Origin: Clostridia bacterium | Lineage (GTDB): Bacteria > Bacillota > Clostridia > UBA1381 | Direction of reading: 5' to 3' | Length of the DNA stretch: 64,000 nucleotides | Assembly: GCA_045593305.1 (NCBI GenBank) | Contig: JAZNWI010000181.1 | Coordinates: 8,831 to 72,830 of the forward strand | Part shown: in pieces, positions 1-64,000 of the stretch | Layout: the number at the start of each line of letters is the position of its first letter | How positions within the stretch are numbered: position 1 is the first letter of the stretch | The notes under the pieces: generated by a model | Database searches by the model: none | The model's input: only the letters and a program-made list of their open reading frames with translations | Told to the model about the DNA's origin: nothing | Program-made: the position numbers and the translations under genes

Positions 1-2267
1 ACCGCGAGAAAGAGCGCCGTATGGCAATGTTTGAAGCGGCGGGAGTTAATAATATAGACAAATATCAGATGCTTTACCACGAGGGTAAGGTCAGCGAACC
101 TCTTCCTCATCTTGTTATTGTTGCTGATGAATTTGCCGAACTGAAAAAAGAAGAGCCGCAATTTATTTCGGATCTTGTTTCTGTTGCTCGTGTGGGCCGA
201 ACTCTCGGTATCCATCTTGTTTTGGCAACTCAAAAACCCTCGGGTATTGTTGATGACCAGATTTCGGGTAACTCCCGTTTCCGTCTTTGCCTTAAGGTTC
301 AGGATGCGAGCGACAGCCGTGAAATGATTGAAAGACCTGAGGCTTCAAAAATAACTCAGGCAGGCCGTTGTTATGTTAGAGTCGGTAAGGATGAGGTGCT
401 TGAGTTGTTCCAGTCCTTCTGGAGCGGAGCGCCGTATGTAGGTAATTCTGAAGGGAAAATCGAGAAGGGTAATCAGGTTTGTATTGTTGAAACAAACGGA
501 CACAGAGTTAAGCCACCAAAGAAAAACACTTCAAAGGTTAAAGCCGAGTTCGACGAGCTTGCGGCAATAAATAAATATATAACTGATTTGGCTGAAAAAC
601 AAGGTATTCCGAAGCTGCGCGGTCCGTGGCTTCCCGAGCTTGAAGAAAATATTTTGCTGGATAGTGTAATCAGCGCTGAAAAAGGTTTTGACGGCGAAAA
701 ATGGAATACCAATGATTTGCCGTGGCTTAAAGTTCCCGTAGGTTTTTATGATATGCCTGAGCTCCAGGAGCAGGGTACATTGTGTTTGGATTTTGCCTCT
801 GATGGTCATTACGGCATTTATGGTGCATCGGGTACGGGCAAAACAGTGCTTTTAAAGACACTCATTACTTCAATGTGCAAAAATTATACTCCTGATGACG
901 TTAACATTTATGTTATCGACTGCGGCGGTTGGAGTATGAATGTTATGTCCGCCTTCCCTCATGTGGGCGGAGTAGTTCTTGATGTAGAGGAAGAAAAAAT
1001 ATCAAAATTCCAAAAGCTTATTAACGAGGAATTTGACAGGCGCAGAAAATTGTTCCTGGATAATGTTGTAAGCTCTTTGACCGCATACAGAGAAACTGTC
1101 GGAAAAATGCCTGCGATTATTATCATGATCGATAATATTATGCCTATTTTCGATCTTTATCCTGATATTGAAGATTTGCTGATAAAGATTTCCCGCGATG
1201 GTGCAACATACGGTATTTACCTTGTGTTTACCGCTAATACAAATACGGGAATCCGATATAAAATTATTCAAAATATCAAGGGCGCAGTAGCTTTTGAGCT
1301 TACAGATAAGGGTGATTATTCCGGTATAGTAGGCAGAACTGAGGGTAAATTCTTGCCTAAAACCTGTGGCAGAGCATTATATAAGGGTTCGTGCCCCACA
1401 GAGTTTCAGGTAGCTTGGTACGCACAGGGCGAAAATGAAATTATAAGAGCCGCCGATGTTAAAGGCTTATCATCAAGAATGTGCGATGCGTGGACAGGTG
1501 ACTTACCGAGAGTTATTCCTGTAATGCCTGAAAAGGTTGAGTTCAATGCTATTGCCCGAGAGTATAAAGGAAGAAACGATATACCTCTTGGTATCTCTTA
1601 CGAAAGCATTGAAACGGCTTTTGCAGGTATGGAAAAGAAGTATTGCTTTATGGTGAGCGGTTCTATAGGCTCGGGTAAAAGCGCGCTGTTAAAAAATATA
1701 GCTTGTATGCTGCAAAACGAAAACAACCTTATGTATTTCTTTGACAGCGATAAAAGAACCTTTGCGGACTTTGCGTCAAGTGCAACCGGCTACGCTATCG
1801 ACAAAAATGATAGTGCTGTGAATACACTCATCCGTGAAATTGTAGGTATGCTTAACGCCAGAAAGGACGCGCAGGTTGAGGCATCTGCCGAACCCGATTT
1901 CGATCCTGTTTCGTTTATATTAAAGGAAAAGCAAATCTGTATTTTTATTGATGATATCAATGAGTTTGTTGAGTCTGTTGAAAACGAAACGCGCAACTGG
2001 ATGGATAATATTGCAAGATTGGCTGAGGATTTGGGCGTATTGGTATTTGTTGCCGGGCGACTTGGCGATGTCAGCAAATTAGCTGACTTAGAGCCGTTAA
2101 CAGCCACGATAGTGAAATATCAAAACGGTATTCTGGTTGATGGCTCTCCCGCAAATGCAGGCTTTTTTGATAATAACCTTTCTTTTGCTGAGCGAGATCA
2201 GGTTTGCGGTCAGGGTAATGCCTGGTTATTCGATAATGGTTCTTGCACTAAAATAAAAATTCAGTAA
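1..2267 (+). CDS. essC: T7SSb FtsK/SpoIIIE-family ATPase EssC, C-terminal ~755 aa (5' end lies upstream of the window)
   Basis: The reading frame is open to the window edge. P-loop domains: D1 Walker B VIVADEFAEL plus LGIHLVLATQKPSG, D2 Walker A GASGTGKT, D3 Walker A GSIGSGKS. WXG100 genes follow immediately. Confidence 0.9.
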   Translation, partial: REKERRMAMFEAAGVNNIDKYQMLYHEGKVSEPLPHLVIVADEFAELKKEEPQFISDLVSVARVGRTLGIHLVLATQKPSGIVDDQISGNSRFRLCLKVQDASDSREMIERPEASKITQAGRCYVRVGKDEVLELFQSFWSGAPYVGNSEGKIEKGNQVCIVETNGHRVKPPKKNTSKVKAEFDELAAINKYITDLAEKQGIPKLRGPWLPELEENILLDSVISAEKGFDGEKWNTNDLPWLKVPVGFYDMPELQEQGTLCLDFASDGHYGIYGASGTGKTVLLKTLITSMCKNYTPDDVNIYVIDCGGWSMNVMSAFPHVGGVVLDVEEEKISKFQKLINEEFDRRRKLFLDNVVSSLTAYRETVGKMPAIIIMIDNIMPIFDLYPDIEDLLIKISRDGATYGIYLVFTANTNTGIRYKIIQNIKGAVAFELTDKGDYSGIVGRTEGKFLPKTCGRALYKGSCPTEFQVAWYAQGENEIIRAADVKGLSSRMCDAWTGDLPRVIPVMPEKVEFNAIAREYKGRNDIPLGISYESIETAFAGMEKKYCFMVSGSIGSGKSALLKNIACMLQNENNLMYFFDSDKRTFADFASSATGYAIDKNDSAVNTLIREIVGMLNARKDAQVEASAEPDFDPVSFILKEKQICIFIDDINEFVESVENETRNWMDNIARLAEDLGVLVFVAGRLGDVSKLADLEPLTATIVKYQNGILVDGSPANAGFFDNNLSFAERDQVCGQGNAWLFDNGSCTKIKIQ

Positions 2268-2285
2268 TAACACAAGGAGTTTGTT

Positions 2286-2885
2286 ATGCCTAAAATTGAA
2301 ATTGATGTAGATAAACTTCAATTAGCTGTTCAATTATTTGATTATTCACGAAAACAGGTTGAAGAAGTTTTGTATAAGTTCAATGCTTTAAACAATGAGT
2401 TTCAAGCAGATATGCAGTTGCAAACATCATTGGAATATCCTCAGATTCAAGTTGCTTGCGAAGAGTTTTCAAAATCCTGCTTTGTTGTAAATGAAAAAAT
2501 GCAAGACTTATATTCCGTATTCCTTCAGGTCCCGGGCATTTACTCGCAGCTTGAAGAGAAGGCGAAAAATCGGGTTGAAGGTATCGTTGCAAAAGCCGAG
2601 ATTACTCAAAGAAATATGAGCGATATAACTGCCATTAATATTGAATTGGCTGTTGAAGCTGATGAAGATGTCAGCGTTTTTGCCGAAACAAGTCAGCTTG
2701 TTCAGAACAACAGTTATGAAATGGCTTTGGCAAGTACAGCCGCCGCTGTGGGAATAATTGAGGAAACTTATGCAGGGGATGAGAATCTCGGTATAAACCC
2801 ACTTGTTGAAATGCAGGTTGAAAATTCTGTGATTTCGCTGGAGGCGTCTTTGGTAGCTTCAATGGAGGAAACGGAAGATGAATAA
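2286..2885 (+). CDS. hypothetical T7SS-associated protein (helical N-terminus, very acidic C-terminus)
   Basis: AAGGAG RBS 7 nt upstream of the ATG. 199 aa. Sits directly after essC. No family recognisable by eye. Confidence 0.55.
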   Translation: MPKIEIDVDKLQLAVQLFDYSRKQVEEVLYKFNALNNEFQADMQLQTSLEYPQIQVACEEFSKSCFVVNEKMQDLYSVFLQVPGIYSQLEEKAKNRVEGIVAKAEITQRNMSDITAINIELAVEADEDVSVFAETSQLVQNNSYEMALASTAAAVGIIEETYAGDENLGINPLVEMQVENSVISLEASLVASMEETEDE

Positions 2886-3609
2886 GTGCACTATCAATGA
2901 GTTGGAAAAGATAGAGAAAAAAATATCTTATCTTAAAAATATCTGGCCTGATGTCAGAGTTAATAACATAGTAATTCTTTCTCAGTATCAGCTTTTGTGC
3001 TTGGGTGCCTTGTTGAAAAAGCCCATAGTTCCGGGAATAACACCGATTATTAATATTGATGATGTAAGCGTTAAAACGGCGTTGAAATCGCTGCAAAAAA
3101 AGCAGATGTATTTTCCGCGTTTTTCGGGTGTGGGCGAGGTTGATGAAACTGTTTCAGCTCTTATGGAGCAGCTTTGTGCGCCCGGTGAAAAATATGAAAT
3201 TATCCTCAATTACAGGGCCGGTAAGGTTATTAAATTTTTCGCTTCTTTTACTAAAGGTGCATCGGTGCTCCTTTTTAAACTGAACGAAGGTAATTATGTT
3301 CTTTGTAATTGCGAAGGTGTTTTTAAGTCCGAAAGCATATACAGCGTTGGCGAAATAAGTGCCGATGTTGTGAAACGATTGCGCGATGAGATTACCCAAT
3401 CTTTAGGCTTCTGTGAGGTTAAGGAAAAACTCGCCGCGCTTAACAACGATTCGTTGTTTGTAAACGGGATGTACGATTGCCTTTGCGGCAAGACCAATAA
3501 CGGAATGTTTTGTAAGTATTTTTTCGACGGAATGAAGTTCAGAAAGTTTGAATCCGGCTTTGTGGTTTGCGGAAATGGCTCCGGCGGGATAATAAAACTC
3601 AGAAGGTGA
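2878..3609 (+). CDS. hypothetical soluble protein in T7SS locus
   Basis: The start overlaps the preceding stop, which suggests translational coupling. 243 aa with no TM segment. No family recognised. Confidence 0.55.
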   Translation: MNKCTINELEKIEKKISYLKNIWPDVRVNNIVILSQYQLLCLGALLKKPIVPGITPIINIDDVSVKTALKSLQKKQMYFPRFSGVGEVDETVSALMEQLCAPGEKYEIILNYRAGKVIKFFASFTKGASVLLFKLNEGNYVLCNCEGVFKSESIYSVGEISADVVKRLRDEITQSLGFCEVKEKLAALNNDSLFVNGMYDCLCGKTNNGMFCKYFFDGMKFRKFESGFVVCGNGSGGIIKLRR

Positions 3610-6266: not shown

Positions 6267-7334
6267 ATGGGAACAATTATTGAATTAAATTATTCAAACA
6301 TACTTAACTATTCTACAAAAATAAGATCTATCGACAACGATTTGGAGCAGGCCTATAAGCAACTTGCGGAATCTACCGATTGGGGTAGTTCAATTATGCA
6401 GGGAACATGGAGCTTTTCTGGGAAAAATGCAATTTTTAATGAATTGGCTCAATCTAAAAAAGAGATAAAGCGTATTATGGAGGCTGATGAGGCGCTTATT
6501 AATATTCTTAACAGCCTTGAGTCAGGTTATGAAGGCGTAAATAAAAAAACAACTACGAATGATGAGGCTATACGAAAATTTATCGAGTCTTTGTTTTGGT
6601 TGGTAAAACCCGCAATCATTGCACCTGTGATCATTGGACCTATATGGGGACAATTAATAAACGGATATTCAGATTGGGATACGGGAATACCGGGTGGGGG
6701 TGTGCCTTCTATACCCAAAATTTTCGAAATAACTGATGATTTGAAAGATAAACTGCTGGAAAAAGCGGATGACATTATTGACGGAACAGGCAAAGACTTA
6801 AAGAGTATGAGTGAATCTCTTGATGCAATAAATGATTGGATAGAAAAGAATCTTGGGGAAGACCGAAGAGATCTTATTGATACCTTGCTGGAAGAGCTGG
6901 TTAACGATAAAGATAAATACAAATCACTAAAAATTCTTCAGCAAATTTTTAGCGGAAATTTCGAAGGAGATACATTAATAGATATAGCTTCTCTTGTTGT
7001 GTCTATTATGGGAAAGTCGAATATTAAAACTAAAACGCTGTTTACCGCACTAAAAAAGATGGACAAGTGGAGCGGAATAGGCGCTGAGATGGAGGCGCAG
7101 GTCATAGAGGCATTTGAAGAGGGCGATATATTTAATGGTGTGAGATTGTTTTTGGGCTATGTGGTCGGCGGTCTTAGTGGTTGCGTGCTGGATAATGCTG
7201 CAGCTTTAGCGGATTCCTATTTGCATATTTCTGAATTGGAAACTATTTTCGAAATATTTACGGGTATTGATATTAACGGACCTGTTGACAAAGCAGTTGG
7301 CTCGTTCTTTTGGCGTCTGTTAGGTTTTAAATAA
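6267..7334 (+). CDS. candidate T7SS effector: WXG/LXG-like helical N-terminus plus hydrophobic, glycine-rich membrane-active regions
   Basis: 355 aa. N-terminal ~100 aa is helical with STDWGSS and GTWSFSGKNA. Hydrophobic stretch FWLVKPAIIAPVIIGPIWGQLI. C-terminal small-residue-rich segment LFLGYVVGGLSGCVLDNAAALA. Confidence 0.55.
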   Translation: MGTIIELNYSNILNYSTKIRSIDNDLEQAYKQLAESTDWGSSIMQGTWSFSGKNAIFNELAQSKKEIKRIMEADEALINILNSLESGYEGVNKKTTTNDEAIRKFIESLFWLVKPAIIAPVIIGPIWGQLINGYSDWDTGIPGGGVPSIPKIFEITDDLKDKLLEKADDIIDGTGKDLKSMSESLDAINDWIEKNLGEDRRDLIDTLLEELVNDKDKYKSLKILQQIFSGNFEGDTLIDIASLVVSIMGKSNIKTKTLFTALKKMDKWSGIGAEMEAQVIEAFEEGDIFNGVRLFLGYVVGGLSGCVLDNAAALADSYLHISELETIFEIFTGIDINGPVDKAVGSFFWRLLGFK

Positions 7335-7349
7335 TCGGAGGATAAATAA

Positions 7350-7685
7350 ATGCAATTATTACATATAGGCACAATTTTTACTAAAAATGAAAAGAACTTC
7401 TTGATAATTGGTTATTCCGTCATAAAAAAAGATGAAAAACTACTTCCTGCGTATAAATGCGTTCGGCTTCCGTTGGGCTTCATCAGCAAAGATAGTATAA
7501 AAACCGTTTCTATTGATGATGTTGATAATGTTATTTTCAGCGGCTATAAAAACGAGCAAGCAAACGATTATTTGGAAAAGCTCGGAAAAATATATGATGT
7601 TTTCGGAGAATACGGAGAAGAAGTAAACGATCAGTTAGATGAAGTGTTACAGGCTTTAAAGGAAGGTGGGTATATAAATGAGTAA
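7350..7685 (+). CDS. DUF4176-like protein
   Basis: 111 aa. LLHIGTIF...FLIIGY...RLPLGF...VDNVIFSGYKNE matches the DUF4176 pattern (LPLGSVV ... MI.G ... YP.G ... V.F.GY). Confidence 0.65.
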   Translation: MQLLHIGTIFTKNEKNFLIIGYSVIKKDEKLLPAYKCVRLPLGFISKDSIKTVSIDDVDNVIFSGYKNEQANDYLEKLGKIYDVFGEYGEEVNDQLDEVLQALKEGGYINE

Positions 7686-7944
7686 TTTATTACCGTTAGG
7701 CTCAATAGTAAAAAAGCAGGATAGATTGTTTATGCTCGTCGGCTATCTTCCTCAAGATAAAAAAATCCACATGTATTCCGCTGTTCCGTACCCTTTGGGT
7801 ATGCTGGAAAAGGAAGTAATATATACAATTGACGAAAATGAGTTCGAGGTCGAATTCAAGGGGTACAGCGATGATTTAACTGAACAAGCGCTGAATGGTA
7901 TTGAACTTTTAATACGGGAATTGGCTGCTCGGTTGACTAAATGA
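7678..7944 (+). CDS. DUF4176-like protein
   Basis: 88 aa. LLPLGSIVKK..LFMLVGY...AVPYPLGML...EVEFKGYSDD is a close match to the DUF4176 pattern. Overlaps the previous gene by 8 nt. Confidence 0.75.
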   Translation: MSNLLPLGSIVKKQDRLFMLVGYLPQDKKIHMYSAVPYPLGMLEKEVIYTIDENEFEVEFKGYSDDLTEQALNGIELLIRELAARLTK

Positions 7945-53966: not shown

Positions 53967-54587
53967 TTAATCTTTAATACGCTTTATATGAAATCTTCCA
54001 CGGGCACTAGGGTGGTAGCAATCAAGAACCATTGCGTTTTCAGGTAGCCAATCTTTAACTGTACCGTAGGTGCCGCCGCATATTACTATTTGGGGTGATA
54101 AAAGTTCAATTTCTTTTTTTATAAAAGGCTCATAAAGTTTTGCATAATTCGCCAATCTGCTGTGGTTGGTTGAACCATATCCTCCGCGTTTGTTAAGGTT
54201 CATATATGCACAGTTTTCAGCATCTTTATCCGTGTAGTTATTACTCGCGTCCAATTCATTTAAGGTCTTTAACACCTTTTTTATGAAATCGTAATAAACA
54301 GTCATATATTCTTTTGAGTCTTTCATTGCAAAAGTGTCTTCAAATTCGCCTATTTTTTCATTAACTGAAACATTAGATTCTCTGCATATTATCAAAATAC
54401 CATTAAATTTCATCTCTGATGAAATATAACCATCGGGACAAAAACTGTTTTTGAAGGTTTCATAATCGGGGCTCATACCGTTAATTTTGGGGAATGTTTT
54501 TTTGCAAGAATTTTCATCTTCGGCTTCTTGTGCTTTTTTCCATAATGTAAAAAGTTCCTCTAAAGTAGTAATGTTTTTAATTTCCAT
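53967..54587 (-). CDS. uracil-DNA-glycosylase-superfamily-like protein with non-canonical motifs
   Basis: AGGTGA RBS before ATG 54587. 206 aa. Order of elements: ILIICRESN (motif-A position), AYMNLNKRGG, PQIVICGGTYG, CYHPSARG (motif-B-like HPS). Confidence 0.5.
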   Translation of the reverse strand: MEIKNITTLEELFTLWKKAQEAEDENSCKKTFPKINGMSPDYETFKNSFCPDGYISSEMKFNGILIICRESNVSVNEKIGEFEDTFAMKDSKEYMTVYYDFIKKVLKTLNELDASNNYTDKDAENCAYMNLNKRGGYGSTNHSRLANYAKLYEPFIKKEIELLSPQIVICGGTYGTVKDWLPENAMVLDCYHPSARGRFHIKRIKD

Positions 54588-54653
54588 ATTATCACCTGAA
54601 AAAATTATATCATAATTATCGTAAATCTCAATAATGCGATTATTACAAAAATG

Positions 54654-54673
54654 ATGCACTCTTTTTGGTGCAT
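54654..54673. promoter_or_regulatory. Perfect 6-N8-6 inverted repeat ATGCAC-N8-GTGCAT in the divergent promoter region
   Basis: Read directly. Lies 8 nt upstream of the TTGTGT -35-like hexamer of the WYL gene. Confidence 0.45.
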
Positions 54674-54680
54674 ATAACAC

Positions 54681-54708
54681 TTGTGTTATGGTGCAGATAT
54701 GGTACAAT
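54681..54708 (+). promoter_or_regulatory. Sigma-A-like promoter of the WYL regulator gene (TTGTGT-N16-TGgTACAAT)
   Basis: Extended -10 TGGTACAAT at 54700-54708. It contains GGTACA, the reverse complement of the TGTACC motif seen at the two downstream promoters. Confidence 0.5.
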
Positions 54709-54743: not shown

Positions 54744-55727
54744 ATGGCTGAACTTGAACCTAAAAAATTGGCGTTAATCCGTATTTTGCAAATTTTTGAG
54801 AAATACAGTGATTTTGACCATCCTTTAAAGCAGGAAGATATTGCGAACTATCTTGAAGATGATTACGGAATTGTTATTGAGAGAAAGGCAATCGGAAGAA
54901 ACATATCTCTTCTTAAAGAGGCGGGGTATGAAATCGAATCAACCAGAGCGGGTAGTTTCCTTGAAGCGCGGGCTTTTGAGGATTCGGAGCTTCGTATGCT
55001 TATTGATGGGGTTCTTTCAAGTACGCATATTGCACCTAAATATTCAAAGGATTTAATTGAAAGACTTTGCGGTCTGTCGAATGTTTATTTTAAATCCCAC
55101 ATTAAAAATATTTATTCCGTAAACGATTGGAACAAGACGGATAATATCGCTCTTTTCTATAATATAGATATGATAGATTTGGCTATCGAAAAGGGTGTGC
55201 AGATTGCTTTTGATTACAATAAGTTCGGTGTGGATAAAAAGCTGCATAAATCTGCTTCTCACAAGGCGAGTCCTTATCAGCTTATTCTTCATAACCAACG
55301 CTATTATTTAATGGCGCTTAACGAAAGATGGCACAATATGGGTTTTTACAGACTTGACAGAATCAGCAATATGACTCTTATTGAGGACAGACCTTTAACC
55401 AATATTCGTACTGTTGAGGGTTACGAAAACGGAATTGATTATAAGGAAATAGCGACAGGTCTTCCTTATATGTTCACAGATAAGCCTCAACCTATTGAAT
55501 TTATTTCAGATAAAAAAATTATCGACCAGATTGTTGATTGGTTCGGTAGAGATATTAAATTTACCGAGCTCAGCAAAGATAAGGTGAAGGTTGAATTAAC
55601 CGCAAGTCCCAATGCAATGGAGCACTGGGCAAAGCAGTATCTTGGCTTTGTTGAAATTACAAAACCTTTGGAGCTTCGTCAGAAGATTAAAGAAATATTG
55701 GTTGATGCTAAAAAAAGATATAAATAA
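54744..55727 (+). CDS. WYL-domain transcriptional regulator (BrxR/CapW-like architecture)
   Basis: GAGGAG RBS. N-terminal wHTH (LKQEDIANYLEDDYGIVIERKAIGRNISLLKEAG). WYL-type core RYYLMALNERWHNMGFYRLDRISNM. 327 aa. Confidence 0.85.
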   Translation: MAELEPKKLALIRILQIFEKYSDFDHPLKQEDIANYLEDDYGIVIERKAIGRNISLLKEAGYEIESTRAGSFLEARAFEDSELRMLIDGVLSSTHIAPKYSKDLIERLCGLSNVYFKSHIKNIYSVNDWNKTDNIALFYNIDMIDLAIEKGVQIAFDYNKFGVDKKLHKSASHKASPYQLILHNQRYYLMALNERWHNMGFYRLDRISNMTLIEDRPLTNIRTVEGYENGIDYKEIATGLPYMFTDKPQPIEFISDKKIIDQIVDWFGRDIKFTELSKDKVKVELTASPNAMEHWAKQYLGFVEITKPLELRQKIKEILVDAKKRYK

Positions 55728-55740
55728 ATATATTTTTTAT

Positions 55741-55773
55741 AAACCGCCACGCAGAAATGCGTGGCGGTTTTTG
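55741..55773 (+). terminator. Rho-independent terminator after the WYL gene
   Basis: Perfect 12-bp stem AAACCGCCACGC / GCGTGGCGGTTT followed by TTTTT. Confidence 0.9.
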
Positions 55774-55807
55774 TGTACCTAAAACAGTACATAAGATTTT
55801 GTATAAT
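55769..55807 (+). promoter_or_regulatory. Promoter/operator cassette: TTTTGTGTACC, inverted repeat GTGTAC-N8-GTACAT, then TATAAT
   Basis: GTGTAC at 55773 and TATAAT at 55802, a 29-nt offset. The inverted repeat covers the -35 position. Confidence 0.5.
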
Positions 55808-55839
55808 ATATTTACGATGAAAATTTGGGAGGTTTAAAG

Positions 55840-57861
55840 ATGGTTTTTTATAAGATTGAAGCAGCTATTGATGATGTTGAAAATAATGTTGATTTGAAGG
55901 ATAGGAAATCTATGAAAACATTGGCAGATGAGCTTTGTGAAAAAAGTGAATCTTTTTATCAAAAAAGTAAGCAACAGAATTTTGTTTTTGCAGTGGGAGT
56001 CAGAAATGAAAAAATTACTTTTGGAATGATTCTCAGAACCAATGGCGACATAGATAATATTTTTGCAAAATTCGAGAAAATATTACCATTTGAATTAAAG
56101 AAGGTTTTGTTTGAAGAAATTACTTTCAGAGCATTTCATTCTATGCTTAACAGTGCTGTGCGTAATGATTTTGTTTATGATAATGATGATGTTTTAGATG
56201 CATTCGGAATAAGCGGGATTGGTGATAGGTATTGCCATATCCCTTATGGTGAAGCGGTAATTGAAGATAATGTTAATTCAGAAAAAATGTTTCAGTTTGC
56301 AGATGAAAATCTGTTCAGAGAAACTCTGAGACCTGAACTTGAAAGAATATACATAAAAAACACCTGCAATGTATTTAAAGGTCATCCGGTGCATTACATA
56401 ATAAGAAGCGATGAACGGGAATTGAAAAAAGAGATATATCGCACCTTGCTTGCGGCGCTTTATGATAACGGACGAATACAGAATAAGAGATATTGTTTCG
56501 TGGACTATGATAATAAATGCCGGGTTCCCGGTCAAAGTTTTGAGGCTCTTTATAAAAGCTGCGAGGGCGGAGCAATGATAATTCGTTATGGTAATGAAAC
56601 AGATAATGATGGTGAATATGCAAGGCGTGATGAAGAGGTTATTTCAGCTTTGTGTGAAACGGCGGTGAAGTATAAAAACAAGGTTCTGACAATAATTTGC
56701 CTTCCTTGTGCCGGCACCAAAGTAAAGGAAATGTTTTTAATGAATTTCGGTGTAACTTCCTTTGTGGAAATTTTTGAGGATGTAGTCCATAAGAAACAGG
56801 CGCAGGAGTATCTCAGAAACAAGGCGAAGCAATTGAAAATAAGAAGTGACAAAAAGTTGATAGATTTATCTGACGATAATGATAAATGTTATACCGTAAC
56901 CGAACTTAATCGTATTTTTGATGAATGGCATGATAAAAAACTTCGTAACACAATTTTTCCTCAATACAAGCAAGCGCAAACAACGAAAGTTAAACTAAAT
57001 AAAGAAGAACCCAAGGGGAGTGCTTATGAAAAACTGCAAAAACTTATTGGTTTGAGTGAAGCCAAAAAGGTTATGAACCAAGCCCTTAATTTTTATAAAG
57101 CACAGAAAATATTTGAAGATAGAGGTTACTCAAAGGACCGTCCTGCTATGCATATGGTATTCACAGGCAATCCGGGAACTGCAAAAACAACTGTGGCAAG
57201 GCTTTTTGCGCAGATTATGAAAGAAAATGGACTTTTGTCAAAAGGTGATTTGTATGAAGTGGGCAGAGGAGATATCGTTGGAAAATATGTCGGCTCCACA
57301 GCACCTTTAGTACAAAAGTTATTCAGAGAAGCCAAAGGCAGTGTTTTGTTTATTGATGAGGCGTATTCTCTTGTTGATGACAGAGATGGGCTTTACGGTG
57401 ACGAAGCAATAAATACCATAGTTCAGGAGATGGAAAATAATCGTGAAGATACCGTTGTTATTTTTGCAGGGTATCCTGATAAAATGAACGGCTTTTTAGA
57501 CAAAAATCCCGGACTTCGCTCACGTATTGCTTTCCATATACCTTTTGAAGATTATAATTCAAAAGAGCTTTGCGATATCGCAAAGTTGATTGCCGCAAAT
57601 AAAGGTTTAGAGTTAACTGAAGAAGCAACAGAAAAATTAGAAACAGTTTTTGAATCTGCGATATTAAGCCCTGATTTTGGTAACGGCAGATACGCAAGAA
57701 ATATCATAGAAAAGGCTAAAATATCACAAGCCAACAGACTTGTTTCTATGGATTTAGATAAGATTGCGGATGAAGATATCACTACACTTCGTGCGGAAGA
57801 TATAGAAGAACCTTTTACAACCAAAACAGAAGAAAATATCAAAATAGGCTTTGCCATATAA
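55840..57861 (+). CDS. CbbX/SpoVK-type AAA+ ATPase with ~430-aa N-terminal region containing a P-loop-less AAA-like segment
   Basis: GGGAGG RBS. Walker A GNPGTAKT. Walker B VLFIDEAYSL. GYVGSTAPLVQKLF is typical of the CbbX/SpoVK clade. N-terminal segment KGHPVHYIIRSDE...GGAMIIRYGN. Confidence 0.85.
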   Translation: MVFYKIEAAIDDVENNVDLKDRKSMKTLADELCEKSESFYQKSKQQNFVFAVGVRNEKITFGMILRTNGDIDNIFAKFEKILPFELKKVLFEEITFRAFHSMLNSAVRNDFVYDNDDVLDAFGISGIGDRYCHIPYGEAVIEDNVNSEKMFQFADENLFRETLRPELERIYIKNTCNVFKGHPVHYIIRSDERELKKEIYRTLLAALYDNGRIQNKRYCFVDYDNKCRVPGQSFEALYKSCEGGAMIIRYGNETDNDGEYARRDEEVISALCETAVKYKNKVLTIICLPCAGTKVKEMFLMNFGVTSFVEIFEDVVHKKQAQEYLRNKAKQLKIRSDKKLIDLSDDNDKCYTVTELNRIFDEWHDKKLRNTIFPQYKQAQTTKVKLNKEEPKGSAYEKLQKLIGLSEAKKVMNQALNFYKAQKIFEDRGYSKDRPAMHMVFTGNPGTAKTTVARLFAQIMKENGLLSKGDLYEVGRGDIVGKYVGSTAPLVQKLFREAKGSVLFIDEAYSLVDDRDGLYGDEAINTIVQEMENNREDTVVIFAGYPDKMNGFLDKNPGLRSRIAFHIPFEDYNSKELCDIAKLIAANKGLELTEEATEKLETVFESAILSPDFGNGRYARNIIEKAKISQANRLVSMDLDKIADEDITTLRAEDIEEPFTTKTEENIKIGFAI

Positions 57862-57875
57862 AAAGGAGAATAGAT

Positions 57876-58634
57876 ATGGATAAATTACCAATTATGTACA
57901 ATGACTATCAAATGAATAAAATTCAAAAGTTTATAGATAAAAACTTTGGTCGGGGTAGCGGATTTCTGTATCATGAAATTTATAGCGAATATGTTCATAC
58001 AGATGTATATGTTGCTGTTAATGAAGACGGCGTAAAAAATTTGGTTACATTCGGAATGAGTGCTCGCGAAATGTGTCCGGCAGTAATTGGATTTGGAAGT
58101 ATAGAGTTTGTTATGAAGCTATCAAAAGAAATTGATGCTAAAAGCAAAGAGGCGTGTGTCGTAACAGGTGAATTACAAAGTTTAAGTAAATTTCCTTTCA
58201 GAGAAAACACTTGTTTGGGTCCCGGGCACACGATTAATGTTTCAAAACAATTTAAAGACACATTCGGTTATGATTATGTGGTTTTTTATGACTCGGGCTT
58301 AACATTCAAAATGTCAAAATCAAAAGAAGTTAAGTTTTTATTGGCTGTTCCTGTTTACAAGGAGGAAAGGGAATGGATGGTAGAAAACGACAGTTTCTTA
58401 TTTTTGGATGAATTGCTTGATGAATATGGCGAAAATGTCTTTAAGGTTGACTTTCGAAGAGATGTTTTGATACCGAATTATACAATCGACCCCGAAGAGT
58501 TAAGTCTTATGAGAGTTCTTGGAATTGATTCGGAAACATTAAGCTGTCTGAGTGACTATCTGAGTCAAATGGAAGAACAAGGTGCAGAAATAACATATGA
58601 AATGATAGCTAAATGGATTGAAGAAAATAAATAA
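57876..58634 (+). CDS. SUFU-like (suppressor-of-fused family) protein
   Basis: GFLYHEIYSEYVHTDVYV...NLVTFGMSAREM matches the bacterial SUFU pattern (HE...D.hiDV...lvT.GmS..M). 252 aa. Confidence 0.55.
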   Translation: MDKLPIMYNDYQMNKIQKFIDKNFGRGSGFLYHEIYSEYVHTDVYVAVNEDGVKNLVTFGMSAREMCPAVIGFGSIEFVMKLSKEIDAKSKEACVVTGELQSLSKFPFRENTCLGPGHTINVSKQFKDTFGYDYVVFYDSGLTFKMSKSKEVKFLLAVPVYKEEREWMVENDSFLFLDELLDEYGENVFKVDFRRDVLIPNYTIDPEELSLMRVLGIDSETLSCLSDYLSQMEEQGAEITYEMIAKWIEENK

Positions 58635-58639
58635 GAAAA

Positions 58640-58674
58640 CGAGTCTTTCGAAGTTTCGGAAGACTCGCTTTTGT
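58640..58674 (+). terminator. Rho-independent terminator after the AAA-SUFU operon
   Basis: CGAGTCTTTCGAA / TTCGGAAGACTCG stem followed by CTTTTGTG. Confidence 0.85.
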
Positions 58675-58707
58675 GTACCGAAATTGGTTCGCAAGAATTG
58701 CTATACT
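58669..58707 (+). promoter_or_regulatory. Second copy of the cassette: TTTTGTGTACC, N8, GTTCGC, then TATACT
   Basis: GTGTAC at 58673 and TATACT at 58702, the same 29-nt offset as at 55773/55802. The right half-site is degenerate. Confidence 0.45.
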
Positions 58708-58770
58708 ATCGTTGTGAATTGAGTTTGCCCCTCATTATACATTTTTATTTGCAATAAAAGGAGTTTTTTT

Positions 58771-61700
58771 ATGTCAAAGAAAAAAGATGTTAATGCTGTT
58801 GAAGTAGCGAATGAAAAACGAAAAATTCTATTTAACTTTTATGACAGTATCAAAAAAGGCGGTGCAGTTTTTTCTAATGAAGATTTTGAGATAGCAATAG
58901 AATCTTTAAAGTATGCACAATTAGACATAAGAGAGCAGGAGAAAAGAGCCAGGGAGGAGAGAGAGGCAGAGCTGCTTAAAAAGAAAATGGAAGAAGAGGA
59001 AACCAGAAGAAAAGCGGCAGAAATCAGAGCGGCACGAAGAGCTGAACGCAAACGCAGAGAACGTGCGGAGCAAATCAGCGCAATGGAATTGCCAATGGAT
59101 TTCGTTAACTCTTTTGAAGATGATGCACGCGCCAATATTCATTGCGACAGTATATCCGATGCATTATTTGTTTCTATTGATTCTTTAGGGCTTGTTGATA
59201 TTGAGTTTATTGCTTCAATTACAGGGGAAGAAATGAAAACTGTAATCGAAACATTAAAAGGTTCAATTTATCAGAATCCGCTTCATTGGGAGGAATGCTT
59301 TTATAAAGGTTGGGAAACAGCAGAAGAATATCTTTCGGGAAATCTTATGCATAAATATCAATTAGCTATGGAAGCAAATACTGAATACCCCGGTTGTTTT
59401 GATGATAATATAAAAGCTTTGTTGGAGGTTATGAACCCTGAACTTACCACAGACGAGATTTATATAACATTGGGCTCTCCCTGGGTGCCTACAGATATTA
59501 TAGATGACTTTATTATGCATTTAATAGGCTACGAAAAGTATGGAGGGGAGTACCCGAAGGAAGTAGAATCATTTATTACTAAAGAAAATGCTGTGCGCCA
59601 CGATGAAATTACAGGTATCTGGGAAATACCCAATAAAACAAGGTTCAGAAAAAGTAAGGAGCATGGTAAATACGAGGAGATAAATTATTCTACATACGGA
59701 ACCAAAAGAATGGACATGCTTTACCTTTTGGAAAATATTCTTAATATGAAAACTCTGGCAATTTTTGACACCACCGACCCTAATAGCAAAACAAGAATTC
59801 TTAATCAGAATGAAACAGTAAAAATTTTGGAAAAGCAAGATAAGATGGTTCAGGAATTTCAGAAATGGGTATGGGAAGACGAGGAACGGAAAAGAAGATT
59901 GAGCGGAGCATATCACCGTAAATACGGCAGCATTAAAAAACGTGTTTTTGACGGTTCGTTTTTAGAATTTCCTGATATGAATCCCGAAATTGAACTGCGC
60001 CCACACCAAAAAAATTCGGTGGCAAGAATTATTTTTTCTCCCAATACATTGTTAGCTCATGATGTAGGCGCAGGAAAAACTTATACAATGATCGCTGCGG
60101 GTATGGAGTTGAAAAGGCTTGGAAAATCACAAAAGAATTTATATGTAATTCCCAATAATATTTTGCCCCAATGGGTTGAAATGTTCAAAAAAATGTACCC
60201 TGACGCAAATTTACTTGTTGTCAACAATAAAAACTTCAACTCGAAAAAACGAAATGAAACCTTAAACAGAATAATGGAGGAGGATTTCGATGCAATTCTT
60301 ATGGCATACAGCTCCTTTGATTTATTATCTCTTTCTAAAAAATATTATCAGGATATGTATGAAGAACAACTGTCTTTGTTGGATAAAGCATCCACAAGCT
60401 TTGAAGGTAAGGTGGTTTCAAGAAAACGCGAGAGCGTTGTGAAAACACTTGATAAATTACAAGATAATATGGTTTCAAATGTTTGTGAAGTGGCTTTTGA
60501 TGAGTTGGGTATTAACACCCTTTTTGTTGATGAAGCGCACAACTATAAAAATGTTTCATTGGATTCGGCTATCTCAAGGGTAAGAGGTATATCGAAAAGC
60601 GGTTCAAGAAAATGCGATGCGTTGATGGATAAGGTTCATTGCGTTCAACGCCAGAATAACGGCGGCAGAGTAATTCTTGCAACGGGAACGCCCATTACAA
60701 ACTCTATCAGCGATATTTTTATTATGCAAAAATATCTGCAAGATGGCGAATTGGAATTTTTAGGAATTCAGAATTTCGATTCATGGGTTGGTATGTTCGG
60801 AAAAAAGACTACAGAATTTGAAATTGATGTTGATACAAATTCATATCATCTTGCCACCCGTTTTTCAAAATTCTATAACGTTCCCGAGCTTACTGCGATT
60901 CTTTCGTCAATAGCTGATTTTTATCATATTGACCAATCTGTCGGGATACCTGAATTTGATGGCTACACTGATTCAGTTCGTGTGGGTAGCGATGATTTCA
61001 AAGTGTTTTTGAAGGATATATCCAAAAGAGCAGATGATGTAAGAAAAAAACGCGTCAAACCTAAAGACGATAATTTGCTGAAAATTACAACCGATGGCAG
61101 AAAAGCGGCTCTTGATATGAGGCTTATTGATATGGTTTATGGTCTGGATTTCGATTCAAAGGTTTTCAGATGTGCAGAAAATATTATGGAAATATACAAT
61201 AAAACCCGTGACGAAAAACTTATACAAATGGTTTTCTGTGATACATCTACACCGAAAAATTCCTTTAATTTATATGACGAACTAAAAACTATATTGAAAG
61301 CTATGGGTATGCCCGAAAATGAAATAGCTTTTATACACGAGGCAGATACCGAGGTGAAGAAGAAACTACTTTTCAGAGATTTGAGAAATGGGATTAAATC
61401 CGTTGTTATCGGTTCAACATTTAAAATGGGTTTGGGTGTAAATGTTCAGAAAAGACTTTGCGCGTTGCATCATCTCGATGTTCCGTGGCGGCCTGCAGAT
61501 ATGGTGCAACGAGAAGGAAGAATTCTAAGACAGGGGAATAAATGCGAAGCGGTACAGATTTTCAGGTATATTACCCGTGGAAGCTTTGACGCTTATTCCT
61601 GGCAGTTGCTTGAAGCAAAACAAAAATTTATAAGTCAGATTTTGTCAGGACATGTTGTTGTTCGTGAGGGCGACGATGTTGACGAAAGTGTGTTGACTTA

Positions 61701-62391
61701 TGCAGAGGTTAAGGCATTGGCGGTAGGTAATCCTCTTATTAAAAAGCGCGTTGAAATTATAAATGAATTAGATAAATACAGAATACTTCAGCGCGATTAT
61801 ACCGAGTCCCGTTATTTGAAACAAAAGACATTAGCAGAGATTCCCGAAAAGATAGAACAACAAAAGGAACGAATCGCAAACACGCAGCTTGATATGGAGT
61901 TTTATGCAGCGCATGGAAATGATTATGAAGATATGAGTTACGAAGAACAAAAGGCTATAAGAGATGCAATATTTTCTGCGGTAAAAACTCATATTAACCA
62001 AAGCTATGAAAAGAAAATTCTGAATTATCAGGGCTTTGACGTGGTTGTTCCTGCACGTATGCAGCCAAAAGTAGTGAAAAGCAAAAATAAGGCAGAAGAT
62101 GGCTCGGCAACTGAAAAAGAGAGGATTCCTTATGTTTTTGTTAAACGAAAAGGCGTTTATTATATGGAAATTGAGAGCGTCGCGGGTATAACGAAACGTT
62201 TGAATAATTTGCTTGATAACCTTGCACAGACGAAACAAAGGCAAGAGGATGCGCTGGAAGACTTGTATTGTCAAAAGGCGGCAATTGAAGAAGAGCTTAA
62301 AACCAACACACAAAGCTATGAATTAGAAATCGAAAGCTTAAAAGCAGAGCTTGAAAAAATTGATGAAGAATTAGGAGTGGCAGCAGCATGA
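58771..62391 (+). CDS. SNF2-family helicase with charged coiled-coil N-terminus and coiled-coil C-terminus (no methyltransferase domain seen)
   Basis: Motif I DVGAGKTYT. Motif II FVDEAHNYKN. Helicase-C motif VPWRPADMVQREGRILRQGN. N-terminal WETAEEYLSGNL / GSPWVP region. 1206 aa. Confidence 0.9.
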   Translation: MSKKKDVNAVEVANEKRKILFNFYDSIKKGGAVFSNEDFEIAIESLKYAQLDIREQEKRAREEREAELLKKKMEEEETRRKAAEIRAARRAERKRRERAEQISAMELPMDFVNSFEDDARANIHCDSISDALFVSIDSLGLVDIEFIASITGEEMKTVIETLKGSIYQNPLHWEECFYKGWETAEEYLSGNLMHKYQLAMEANTEYPGCFDDNIKALLEVMNPELTTDEIYITLGSPWVPTDIIDDFIMHLIGYEKYGGEYPKEVESFITKENAVRHDEITGIWEIPNKTRFRKSKEHGKYEEINYSTYGTKRMDMLYLLENILNMKTLAIFDTTDPNSKTRILNQNETVKILEKQDKMVQEFQKWVWEDEERKRRLSGAYHRKYGSIKKRVFDGSFLEFPDMNPEIELRPHQKNSVARIIFSPNTLLAHDVGAGKTYTMIAAGMELKRLGKSQKNLYVIPNNILPQWVEMFKKMYPDANLLVVNNKNFNSKKRNETLNRIMEEDFDAILMAYSSFDLLSLSKKYYQDMYEEQLSLLDKASTSFEGKVVSRKRESVVKTLDKLQDNMVSNVCEVAFDELGINTLFVDEAHNYKNVSLDSAISRVRGISKSGSRKCDALMDKVHCVQRQNNGGRVILATGTPITNSISDIFIMQKYLQDGELEFLGIQNFDSWVGMFGKKTTEFEIDVDTNSYHLATRFSKFYNVPELTAILSSIADFYHIDQSVGIPEFDGYTDSVRVGSDDFKVFLKDISKRADDVRKKRVKPKDDNLLKITTDGRKAALDMRLIDMVYGLDFDSKVFRCAENIMEIYNKTRDEKLIQMVFCDTSTPKNSFNLYDELKTILKAMGMPENEIAFIHEADTEVKKKLLFRDLRNGIKSVVIGSTFKMGLGVNVQKRLCALHHLDVPWRPADMVQREGRILRQGNKCEAVQIFRYITRGSFDAYSWQLLEAKQKFISQILSGHVVVREGDDVDESVLTYAEVKALAVGNPLIKKRVEIINELDKYRILQRDYTESRYLKQKTLAEIPEKIEQQKERIANTQLDMEFYAAHGNDYEDMSYEEQKAIRDAIFSAVKTHINQSYEKKILNYQGFDVVVPARMQPKVVKSKNKAEDGSATEKERIPYVFVKRKGVYYMEIESVAGITKRLNNLLDNLAQTKQRQEDALEDLYCQKAAIEEELKTNTQSYELEIESLKAELEKIDEELGVAAA

Positions 62392-63497
62392 GTTCAACAA
62401 ATATAAATATGCCGGTATTATCCGTAGAAAAAACCATAAAAACATTATCGGAATCTTATTGTGAAGTTATAAAAAAAGATTTGCCTATGAAAATACTACC
62501 TTCTGTTATGCTTTGGGGACCTCCCGGTGTAGGTAAATCTCAGGCAATAAGGCAGATTGCCAAAAACATTGAGTCGCAAACAAGAAAAAGGGTTGAAGTT
62601 ACAGATGTCAGACTGCTTCTTTTTAATCCTATTGACCTTCGAGGAATACCTACTGCAAACGCAGATAAAACCTTGGCAATATGGTTGAAACCGCAAATAT
62701 TTCAGATGAGCGACAGCGAAGATGTTATCAATATACTTTTTCTTGATGAGATTTCTGCAGCACCTCAGTCGGTGCAGGCTGCGGCTTATCAGATAACTCT
62801 TGACAGAGTTGTTGGTGAGCATAAATTGCCGGATAACTGCATTGTAGTTGCTGCAGGTAACCGAGTTACAGATAAATCCGTTTCTTTTAAAATGCCTAAA
62901 GCTCTTGCAAACCGTTTGTTACATATTGAAATTGAGGGTAGCTTCGATTCCTGGCTTAATTGGGCTATGAAATCAGGTGTAAACGAAAAAGTTATCGGTT
63001 ATTTATCTTATCGGACAGACAGGCTTTTCGGTTTTGATGCGCAAAATGATGATCTTGCTTTCGCCACGCCCCGTTCATGGGAAATGGTAAGTAATTTGCT
63101 TAATAATGTTTCAGATAATGTTGTAAAAATATACCCGTTAATAGCGGGTCTTGTGGGTAATGGTGTTGCTTATGAATTCAGATCCTGGTGCAAGATGACT
63201 GATTTGCCCAAAGTGGAAGATATTTTTAACGGAAAGGAAAAAAACTTGCCTGAAACCGGCGATGCTTTGTATGCGGTAGTAGCTTCCATGGTGTCTTATG
63301 CCAGAGATTGTAAATATGATTTAGACAAAATGGGACATTCTCTCAGGTACGCTTATAATATGCCTGCTGATTATGTAGCGTTTTTATTGAAAAATTATGA
63401 AACTTTTTCAGATGATTATAAAAATACTTTATTACAGATTCCCGAATATATAAAACTTGCGGGAAAGAATGGTGTTGTTCGCAATGGCTCAGTTTGA
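62388..63497 (+). CDS. MoxR-like AAA+ ATPase (AAA_5 type)
   Basis: Walker A GPPGVGKS. Walker B ILFLDEIS. VVAAGNR. Start overlaps the SNF2 stop. Confidence 0.85.
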   Translation: MSSTNINMPVLSVEKTIKTLSESYCEVIKKDLPMKILPSVMLWGPPGVGKSQAIRQIAKNIESQTRKRVEVTDVRLLLFNPIDLRGIPTANADKTLAIWLKPQIFQMSDSEDVINILFLDEISAAPQSVQAAAYQITLDRVVGEHKLPDNCIVVAAGNRVTDKSVSFKMPKALANRLLHIEIEGSFDSWLNWAMKSGVNEKVIGYLSYRTDRLFGFDAQNDDLAFATPRSWEMVSNLLNNVSDNVVKIYPLIAGLVGNGVAYEFRSWCKMTDLPKVEDIFNGKEKNLPETGDALYAVVASMVSYARDCKYDLDKMGHSLRYAYNMPADYVAFLLKNYETFSDDYKNTLLQIPEYIKLAGKNGVVRNGSV

Positions 63498-64000
63498 TAA
63501 GCAAACCTTAGATATTGTTAAGAGATTGCAAAGCGCAAGACTCTCTCTTTTATCAAAACAACCTTTTTACGCTTTGCTTTTGATGAATATGAAATTTGCT
63601 TTAGATATAACCTGCAAAACCGCTTACACAGACGGAACAAGAATAGCATTTAACCCTGACTTTATAAATATGTTAAGCGATAGCGAATTGGAGTTTGTTT
63701 TAATGCACGAGGTTTTGCACGTTGCGTTAGGTCACCCTTTTAGATTTCAGGCTGATTATGATTTGGAAGCGTATGATTTAGCATGTGATATTGTGGTTAA
63801 TTCCAATATATTGAAAAGCTTCGGTATGGACCGCAGGAAAATCACTTTGAAAGAATACGGTGAATTAATTCATATTGCGCCGGATGGAACAGAAGGCTAT
63901 GAATATACGGTTGAGCAGGTTTATATACAGATACTTAAAAAAAGAAAAAAGGAAAAAGATAGTGATTCAGCGAATGATGAAGGTGAGCCCCAAGATGATC
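63484..64000 (+). CDS. DUF2201-type putative metallopeptidase / VWA-like protein, N-terminal part (runs off window)
   Basis: ATG 63484 overlaps the MoxR stop. KQPFYALLLMNMKF...TDGTRIAFNP...LMHEVLHVALGH (HExxH). Frame is open to position 64000. Confidence 0.8.
   Translation, partial: MAQFDKQTLDIVKRLQSARLSLLSKQPFYALLLMNMKFALDITCKTAYTDGTRIAFNPDFINMLSDSELEFVLMHEVLHVALGHPFRFQADYDLEAYDLACDIVVNSNILKSFGMDRRKITLKEYGELIHIAPDGTEGYEYTVEQVYIQILKKRKKEKDSDSANDEGEPQDD

Follow-up and report, generated by a model that had tools for sequence, protein, structure and literature searches.

The DNA considered here, called the window below, is a stretch of 64,000 nucleotides from a Clostridia bacterium (assembly GCA_045593305.1, contig JAZNWI010000181.1), and its right-hand end, from about position 54744, carries a set of ATPase genes headed by a gene for a WYL-domain regulator. 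This region appears to be the left-hand part, 9 kb long, of an accessory island in the chromosome that spans 20 kb or more and is carried by Clostridia of the gut and rumen, chiefly Acutalibacteraceae and Oscillospiraceae. The invariant core of the island is not a set of six genes but a trio, encoding an SWI2/SNF2 ATPase, a MoxR-type AAA+ ATPase and a zincin-vWA protein. Around this core the island is a modular regulon, in which the WYL regulator, a tandem AAA+ protein, a SUFU-domain protein and a NAD-dependent DNA ligase (LigA) are optional. The SNF2, AAA+ and other units are co-regulated through a recurring candidate operator, and the nearest solved relative of the regulator, as judged by profile comparison, is DriD, an activator that senses single-stranded DNA (ssDNA). 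From these features we infer, with moderate confidence, that ssDNA induces the island as a regulon and that the island's core acts on proteins bound to DNA, remodelling or cleaving them, with defence as the probable role. The trio is probably a new stress- or invader-response machine.

An invariant core in a variable island

The gene content of the window was checked by open reading frame (ORF) listing, translation and scans with Pfam, PHROGs, PADLOC and NCBIfam. All six genes of the original prediction were found, every one on the plus strand and with all ATPase motifs intact. The trio lies at the right-hand end and consists of the SNF2 gene (58771-62391, 1206 aa), the MoxR gene (62388-63497, 369 aa) and the first 172 codons of the zincin-vWA gene (63484 to the window end at 64000). 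The ORFs overlap by 4 nt (SNF2/MoxR) and by 14 nt (MoxR/zincin), which fits the translational coupling that had been claimed for them.

A total of 217 relatives of the SNF2 protein were found in 185,579 species genomes (one genome per GTDB species), and 80 loci from different species were retained, all of them from metagenome-assembled genomes (MAGs) of Clostridia from animal and human guts; loci are designated below by L numbers. ORFs in the loci were called simply as the longest ORFs, and the clustering took in 89 loci. The SNF2 gene is present in all 89, MoxR in 70 and zincin-vWA in 65 of the loci with room for the respective gene (74 and 67), and the trio is held together across SNF2 identities of 47-95%. 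Where a locus extends for 8 kb or more in both directions, the other genes are found far less regularly: WYL in 23/34, LigA in 17/34, LRR_5 in 13/34, AAA+ in 12/34, a 268-aa protein (p268) in 10/34, DUF2779 in 9/34, SUFU in 8/34, an FtsH-like AAA-M41 protein in 6/34 and a retron reverse transcriptase (RT) in 3/34. The optional modules include LRR, Sel1, a Cas4-like nuclease, a dGTPase-like HD protein, an Ec107-like retron and GmrSD, and the optional genes differ between loci in their order and strand. Searches begun with homologues of the AAA+ protein lead to the same island as those begun with SNF2, and L124 has the order WYL - AAA+ - SUFU - SNF2 - MoxR - vWA - LigA between proABC/LemA and other housekeeping genes. 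The expectation that the set travels together is therefore borne out in dozens of species; as a fixed system of six genes it does not hold, only the trio being invariant.

The SNF2 protein matches Pfam SNF2-rel_dom, ResIII and Helicase_C, and its motifs GAGKT, DEAH and QREGRILRQGN are intact. The resemblance to DarB-like polyvalent proteins that had been noticed was confirmed by a match to phrog_10089 ('DarB-like', 6.2e-231) in which residues 125-1195 align with positions 2107-3213 of the 4647 in the profile. Precomputed families assign it to PF28553 (WH_1), PF28554 (DUF8437) and PF28555, and no methyltransferase model of Pfam or NCBIfam scores on it. About 120 aa at the N-terminus form a charged, K/E/R-rich segment of low complexity. 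An AlphaFold2 (AF2) model of residues 101-1206 has low confidence (pLDDT 63.9), and its nearest Foldseek matches are ISWI, Mot1, Chd1, CSB/Rad26 and RapA. These are double-stranded DNA translocases that shift or displace DNA-bound proteins, and the fold matches, although only indicative, point to displacement of proteins from DNA as the predicted activity.

The MoxR protein (AAA_3 3e-8, AAA_5; phrog_1297 6e-90) has the Walker A motif GPPGVGKS and the Walker B motif LFLDE. The zincin part of the third protein (DUF2201_N family) carries its HExxH motif as HEVLHVALGH, matches phrog_1314 (2.8e-32) and shows weak similarity to SprT-like (marginal, E 0.008) and M48 proteins. Its complete orthologue in L009 (14711-16345, 544 aa) matches DUF2201_N (3e-37) and DUF2201/vWA (3.6e-15), with the MIDAS motif DTSGS...T...D intact. 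In this orthologue a linker of about 140 residues (approximately 160-300), acidic, rich in lysine and glycine and of low complexity, separates the two domains.

The extension past position 64000 rests on L009, a locus from an Acutalibacteraceae MAG, because exact-sequence look-ups with the MoxR and SNF2 sequences of the window gave no match. The SNF2 proteins of L009 and the window are 95% identical and the DNA is 85% identical over 8.2 kb; since this homology begins at 54645, that position would be the left edge of the island in the window. Past the trio, L009 continues with LigA, p268, LRR_5, a DnaB_C/nSTAND-like protein and a 184-aa protein (p184), and on the opposite strand with a DUF2779/Cas4-like nuclease and an HD_assoc/dGTPase-like protein. 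The LigA protein of L009 has all of the Ia, adenylation (KxDG as KIDG), OB, Zn, HhH and BRCT domains. It exceeds the cut-off of NF005932 (421 against 369); because it remains just under that of TIGR00575 (431 against 444) and scores only 200 bits against the canonical LigA of T. filiformis, it is a divergent paralogue. Loci with LigA have SNF2 proteins about 47-95% identical to that of the window (tBLASTn), mostly above 54%, and most loci of the approximately 50% clade are without LigA. The p268 gene, which follows LigA or the AAA+ gene, was considered as a divergent SUFU and rejected (hhalign probability 0.1%); no sequence relatives of p268 were found in the PDB.

Two genes of the GmrSD family of type IV restriction enzymes lie between WYL and AAA+ in L009 (2580-6936) and are missing at the corresponding place in the window (55630-55768), so that this bona fide defence module of the island varies by an indel; GmrSD genes are found between WYL and AAA+ in L126 as well. 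The claim that no restriction nuclease is present therefore holds for the window part of the island, where Pfam and PADLOC scans also found no methyltransferase, PLD or TIR domain, and does not extend to the relatives, which carry GmrSD and the Cas4-like DUF2779. The Pfam scans of neighbours covered the 148 nearest non-core families and then the next 137 (285 in all), of which the commonest are reported. The nearest 148 include GmrSD, McrBC, PDDEXK_4, Toprim, RNase_T, Clp protease and DNA_pol3 fragments. As a side observation, short proteins of 293-378 aa, made up solely of NTPase and finger fragments of DNA polymerase III alpha, are encoded directly upstream of SNF2 in L001 (8850-9986) and L046 (8062-8943), and one fragment gene of this group sits behind an operator.

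The AAA+ and SUFU pair

The optional AAA+ gene occupies 55840-57861 in the window (673 aa), its start having been corrected from the identical database protein P0121. The protein matches Pfam AAA and AAA_lid_6 and, among structures in the PDB, CbbX (2e-57). It consists of an N-domain (1-170), a degenerate AAA-like domain without a P-loop (approximately 180-370) and an active module of the CbbX/SpoVK/EccA type (400-660). Only this last module is common to CbbX, SpoVK and EccA, the N-terminal 400 residues being specific to the family, and the scores against the NCBIfam models spore_V_K, CbbX and EccA (203-248 bits) remain well below the equivalog cut-offs of 423-467. Its AF2 model (pLDDT 83.5) matches the double-ring unfoldases Drg1, Cdc48/p97, Rix7 and ClpA/C over the full length in Foldseek, and the protein is predicted to be a Cdc48-like tandem unfoldase.

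The SUFU-domain protein follows at 57876-58634 (252 aa; Pfam SUFU 1.4e-19, 71 bits against a cut-off of 25), and a single-sequence search of the PDB with it gave no match. In 16 loci the SUFU gene lies after the AAA+ gene or before SNF2.

A shared operator-promoter module

The original prediction had held that the two operons of the window share a terminator-promoter-operator cassette and are co-regulated as one unit, and both claims are upheld. The repeat finder paired 55769-55809 with 58669-58709, and alignment of the regions upstream of orthologous genes in other species resolved the conserved core to an 18-bp palindrome, TGYACC-N6-GGTRCA. With at most one mismatch, this palindrome occurs 118 times in 85 non-redundant related loci (1.43 Mb) and once in the control, the same sequences reversed. 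Within the window, 10 matches with at most two mismatches were found where 3.3 are expected, and none of 100 shuffles reached 10. A -10 box agreeing with TATAAT in at least 5/6 positions stands exactly 10 nt 3' of the palindrome at 53 of the 73 intergenic sites with a downstream gene. The central N6 is 86% A/T and occupies the position of a -35 hexamer, no -35 being present, and the distance from site to start codon is mostly 34-68 nt among sites upstream of genes. The reading of the right half-site GGTRCA as a -35 was rejected, its measured spacing to the -10 box being 10 nt and not 17. The cassette is reduced to the palindrome, which is enriched 118-fold in the related loci, 10 nt and TATAAT or TATACT.

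Across many species the operator recurs before each transcription unit, and it is repeated before up to nine of them. The genes that it precedes encode WYL, AAA+, SNF2, LigA, LRR, p184, SUFU, an FtsH-like AAA protein, HD_assoc (dGTPase-like) and the retron RT. In the window the WYL gene is followed by an intrinsic terminator (55741-55770, plus strand) with a GC-rich stem of 13 bp and a U run (dG -24.2 kcal/mol, z -6.9), and then by the plus-strand module O2 (55774-55807), in which the palindrome TGTACCTAAAACAGTACA (55774-55791) is followed after 10 nt by TATAAT (55802-55807). The SUFU gene is likewise followed by a terminator (58636-58672, plus strand; dG -19.4 kcal/mol, z -4.4) and by the plus-strand module O3 (58674-58707), with the palindrome TGTACCGAAATTGGTTCG (58674-58691, two mismatches in the right arm), 10 nt and TATACT (58702-58707). 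Both plus-strand promoters of the window therefore obey the 10-nt rule, and the folding agrees with the strong terminators that had been described. Modules of the O2 type precede the AAA+ orthologues in L012, L016, L017, L021, L036, L044, L061 and L073, and better-conserved copies of O3 precede SNF2 in L006, L012, L021, L025, L032, L033, L044, L061 and L073.

A third site, O1 (TGCACTCTTTTTGGTGCA, 54655-54672, one mismatch), lies between the WYL gene and an ORF that runs divergently on the minus strand (about 206 aa, 53967-54587; its likely start is ATG 54587, preceded by the ribosome-binding site GGTGA), and counterparts of O1 are found upstream of the WYL genes in L009, L012, L017, L021, L051 and L061. 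On the minus strand an AATAAT box stands exactly 10 nt from the palindrome and points at this ORF (54639-54672), which may be a further member of the regulon and extra cargo. The ORF has no match in Pfam, PHROGs, PADLOC or NCBIfam; a homologue, 29% identical, adjoins the WYL gene in L064. The probable -10 box of the WYL gene (TACAAT) is overlapped at 54690-54707 by a direct repeat of the half-site in two copies (GGTGCA ... GGTACA), and this direct repeat, separate from the palindrome, may serve in autoregulation. A further candidate site, AGCACCTCAGTCGGTGCA (62759-62776), lies inside the MoxR gene, where it encodes the conserved AAPQSVQ; about 20 orthologues keep the palindrome with at most one mismatch, and the Ser codon is TCG in 38/73 orthologues compared with 21% of Ser codons overall. 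This palindrome may serve as a binding site within the gene, or it may have arisen by chance.

The retron RT (RT_Ec107-like, 2e-117) has its operator 150-197 nt upstream, a distance that would leave room for the msr/msd RNA. The order p184 - Ec107-like retron RT - WYL recurs in L012 (936-3896), L021 (4189-6998), L044 (1315-4248) and L126 (5073-8000). An Rfam scan of the last 20 kb of the window and of six relatives found no family, and hence no retron ncRNA family there. The Ec107-like retron clade (Clade-2), 93% of which is from Bacillota, has no known accessory module (bioRxiv 10.64898/2026.05.14.725207).

A DriD-like regulator

The regulator gene (54744-55727, plus strand, 327 aa) is likely to start at the ATG behind a GAGGAG ribosome-binding site. 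The WYL domain is recognised by Pfam (PF13280, 2.9e-8, above the cut-off) and by PADLOC (WYL, 3e-21), and orthologues carry a weak match to PF25583 (WCX). [quoted passage not shown] A single-sequence search of the PDB with the WYL protein gave no match. When a profile of 39 family members was run against PDB sequences, however, it recovered DriD (7U02/7TZV 8.6e-10, 9PFQ 4e-9, 8TP8 4.6e-9; the codes were checked against the papers), residues 148-325 aligning with the WYL-WCX part of DriD, and after it PafBC (6SJ9, 7P5X) at 2e-6. The chains of BrxR and CapW, to which the regulator had been likened, were not recovered by this profile at E values up to 1, and on sequence grounds that assignment was rejected.

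DriD, a homodimeric activator, binds ssDNA, and the palindrome that it recognises is A/T-rich at its centre (PMC10853764). Its sites are placed at an identical distance from the -10 box in promoters that have no consensus -35, and DriD recruits RNA polymerase (PMC13004042). CapW, a repressor, likewise senses ssDNA (PMC11662680). Given that DriD is the nearest relative, followed by PafBC, and that CapW shares the property, it is reasonable to infer that the regulator senses ssDNA. Since the site stands at a fixed distance from the -10 box and overlaps the place of the absent -35, as in DriD promoters, it is also plausible that the regulator activates rather than represses.

Proposed function and alternative explanations

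In the mechanism proposed here, the WYL-WCX regulator would sense ssDNA upon DNA damage or upon the replication or entry of foreign DNA and would turn the whole island on by activation. The SNF2 motor would track along duplex DNA until it met a protein or nucleoprotein bound there, which would be captured by the vWA/MIDAS adaptor, remodelled by MoxR and cleaved by the fused zincin. Where present, the tandem AAA+ unfoldase would assist with SUFU as its adaptor, and the dedicated ligase would reseal the DNA. Defence is suggested as the main role by the co-regulation with a retron and GmrSD and by the patchy, horizontally transferred distribution of the island.

Several points weigh against this proposal. 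The window stops after the N-terminus of the zincin, so that the downstream content is taken from a relative, albeit one with 95% identity in SNF2 and 85% in DNA. The invariant trio contains no nuclease or other obvious killing effector, and the regulator may, as far as the sequence goes, be an activator or a repressor. The solved relatives DriD and PafBC control DNA-damage responses and not defence, and the ligase, the Cas4-like nuclease, UDG and the DNA-polymerase-III-like fragments fit repair too. Relatives of MoxR occur in 838 phage records (tBLASTn), including phage G gp566 (51%) and N4-like phages, in which the pair is among the early genes; MoxR and zincin-vWA pairs are common in phages, where they have been proposed to be assembly chaperones (PMC7824862). 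Finally, PADLOC found few known defence genes beyond GmrSD-like ones among the 148 nearest neighbour families, and the idea of a dense defence island is for this reason only weakly supported. Of the conflict system put forward in the original prediction, the undescribed and co-regulated gene set stands, while its defence role is drawn from context and has a serious rival in repair.

This rival would make the island an SOS-independent repair regulon for the cell's own genome, in which a DriD-like ssDNA sensor induces a translocase, two AAA+ remodellers and a zincin, which would free DNA of stalled or crosslinked proteins much as Cdc48 does with Wss1 or SPRTN, together with a ligase, a Cas4-like nuclease and a dNTPase. 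It is rather unlikely in our estimate, although much of the evidence agrees with it. Among solved structures the regulator comes closest to DriD and PafBC, both of them DNA-damage activators, and the promoter geometry is that of DriD promoters (PMC13004042). The islands hold a divergent LigA with KxDG and all domains, the DUF2779/Cas4-like nuclease and the HD_assoc/dGTPase-like protein, while UDG, RNase_T, UvrD_C and DNA_pol3 fragments lie nearby; the zincin is weakly SprT-like and M48-like, and the AAA+ protein is Cdc48-like. However, a core repair pathway would be expected to be distributed more uniformly, and the patchy occurrence (217 relatives in 185,579 species genomes), variable content, shuffled order and signs of transfer between families speak against one. 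A retron behind the same operator and GmrSD inside the island beside WYL also speak against repair, and the SNF2 family is otherwise one of polyvalent proteins of phages and plasmids (PMC5512222). SUFU, LRR and Sel1 proteins are characteristic of conflict loci rather than of repair, as reportedly described in 2012 by Zhang and colleagues in work on polymorphic toxin immunity.

A more specific version of the proposal goes further. The trio, with AAA+/SUFU and the NAD-ligase, could form a machine, switched on by ssDNA through the WYL activator, that seeks out proteins held covalently or tightly on DNA, unfolds and cleaves them and reseals the DNA, a prokaryotic counterpart of Cdc48-Wss1/SPRTN that provides immunity against invader DNA with attached protein. 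It is a doubtful extension as matters stand. If true, its targets would be relaxase-linked conjugative DNA, protein-primed phages and DarB-like protectors, and the same logic would account for the widespread MoxR-zincin-vWA pairs of phages.

The original prediction had offered cargo of an integrative conjugative element (ICE) or prophage as its alternative. In its fuller form, the island would be cargo or a remnant of an ICE, prophage or satellite, and the helicase and MoxR-vWA would serve that element in counter-defence or establishment. Such an origin is improbable, and an accessory, transferable host island is the reading that the sequences support. In favour of a mobile element, the SNF2 protein is of the DarB type, many phages carry MoxR-zincin-vWA pairs (N4-like phages and phage G, at 51%, among them), the genomic position of the island differs between species, and an FtsK fragment lies near some loci. 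In L006-L008, a tubulin/FtsZ-like gene (approximately 6799-7761, minus strand) is divergent from AAA+, with sigma-70 region-4 and HTH_17 genes further out; this is the sole group of loci with the flavour of a mobile element. Two unverified 'Bacteriophage sp.' fragments from human faecal viromes, L122 (MT839804.1) and L123 (MT838628.1), encode full-length AAA+ relatives that are 32-43% identical, and L123 also encodes a WYL protein; they may reflect contamination or the packaging of island DNA.

Against a mobile element, the islands stand between housekeeping genes. The outer flanks (the next 137 families) encode ATP synthase, tRNA synthetase, citrate synthase, ABC transporters and sugar hydrolases, and also proABC. 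No integrase, recombinase, relaxase, type IV secretion system or phage structural family recurs among the 285 neighbour families, as far as the commonest are concerned. In IMG/VR the SNF2 relatives are only 28-37% identical and none adjoins MoxR, vWA, LigA, WYL or AAA+, and megablast searches of phage and plasmid collections gave no near match. The methyltransferase that is nearly always fused to the DarB-type helicases of invasive elements (PMC5512222) is absent here. Transfer between hosts is a different matter: the SNF2 proteins of Lachnospiraceae and Erysipelotrichaceae loci are 57-61% identical to that of the window, compared with 49-51% for many Acutalibacteraceae, and the greater closeness of the other families points to horizontal transfer.

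That the genes have no common function, a MoxR-vWA chaperone pair, a stray helicase, an AAA+ protein and a generic regulator having come together by chance, is hardly credible: the families do occur singly elsewhere (MoxR-vWA in phages and plasmids, AAA+ of the CbbX type), but the trio is kept in 65-70 of about 70 loci, the operator is found at 118 sites to 1 with rigid spacing, and the ORF overlaps fit translational coupling.

The proposed ssDNA-induced regulon would matter in several respects. It brings to light an undescribed three-gene core in more than 200 species of gut Clostridia and gives the MoxR/zincin-vWA pair of phages a cellular, DNA-linked context. With its precise grammar of operator and promoter, it would exemplify DriD-like WYL regulons among Firmicutes. 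By tying sensing of the DNA-damage type to a retron and GmrSD in one island, it bears on how defence islands are switched on. A dedicated, divergent NAD-ligase is unusual in such a cluster, and the Ec107-like retrons inside the regulon suggest candidate partners for a clade without a known accessory module.

Comparison with known systems

The statement that the set corresponds to no named defence system is confirmed: PADLOC matched none as a set, giving only weak partial single-protein matches to WYL, IetA, DrmD and ZorD, and no description of an SNF2, DUF2201-type vWA and linked ligase set was found in the searchable literature. In PADLOC and NCBIfam the matches to DrmD, ZorD, DpdE, IetA and mad8 are weak, partial and far below the cut-offs; SNF2 matches the helicases of named systems in part of the C-lobe at 30-40 bits (DrmD 36 bits against a cut-off of 610). 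The partner genes of DISARM (DrmABC and methyltransferase), Zorya (ZorABC), Dpd (DpdA-K) and BREX (PglX/PglZ) are found neither in the window nor in L009.

The helicase module of the island SNF2 and the region N-terminal to it are homologous to the phage P1 DarB methylase-helicase dyad. In polyvalent proteins the DarB-type helicase is nearly always fused to an N6-adenine methyltransferase (PMC5512222), whereas the island SNF2 has no methyltransferase, stands alone with 1206 aa where those proteins have 2,000-12,000 aa, is chromosomal and is always coupled to MoxR-vWA. The jumbo phages, in turn, have a pair of MoxR and metallopeptidase-vWA proteins that Iyer et al. proposed to be virion assembly chaperones (PMC7824862). 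The phage pairs belong to the same families as those of the island (phrog_1297 and phrog_1314) but have no SNF2, ligase or WYL genes adjacent. Phage G (L089) encodes gp566, the closest of the phage MoxR proteins, the DUF2201 homologue gp576 (annotated as 'HNH endonuclease') and gp596, an AAA+ protein of the CbbX type (37% identical across the AAA+ module), so that two ATPase families of the island co-occur in one jumbo phage.

The likeness to eukaryotic Cdc48/p97 with Wss1/SPRTN, which act in the repair of DNA-protein crosslinks, is an analogy only: a double-ring AAA+ unfoldase, a DNA-associated zincin and the sealing of ends. The homology is at most at the level of superfamilies, and the similarity of the zincin to SprT is marginal (E 0.008).

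Among regulatory systems, the DriD regulon of Caulobacter crescentus is the closest parallel. Both have a regulator of the WYL+WCX homodimer type and a palindromic site with an A/T-rich centre, and both control several units; the island sites, like those of DriD promoters, stand at a fixed distance from the -10 box, with the -35 position inside the A/T-rich centre of the palindrome. The half-sites differ, however, being CGAC/GTCG with a 7-nt gap for DriD and TGYACC/GGTRCA with a 6-nt gap here. The targets of DriD (didA, recA, recJ, bapE, dnaG) are scattered, whereas those of the island (SNF2-MoxR-vWA, AAA+/SUFU, LigA, retron) are clustered in one variable island. With BrxR and CapW the island shares a WYL regulator at the edge of a cluster that includes GmrSD and a retron, and a palindrome in the regulator's own promoter region. 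Those regulators act from one promoter site, while the island operator stands before up to nine units, in a geometry that suggests activation.

The core itself is best set beside the MoxR-vWA ternary conflict systems of multicellular bacteria described by Kaur, Burroughs, Iyer and Aravind in 2020, whose third components are VMAP, iSTAND, tandem FtsH or beta-propeller proteins (PMC7159879). In both, MoxR is paired with a peptidase-bearing vWA protein and a specific third component, and the second AAA+ protein of the island, with its inactive first domain, recalls the FtsH-type third component. The third component of the island is nevertheless a DarB-type SNF2, the CbbX-type tandem AAA+ protein being optional (12/34). 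Its vWA protein is of the short DUF2201 type, its hosts are unicellular gut Firmicutes, and a DNA ligase is linked to it. The trio would accordingly be placed as an undescribed variant of both the islands controlled by WYL regulators and the NTP-dependent systems centred on MoxR-vWA.

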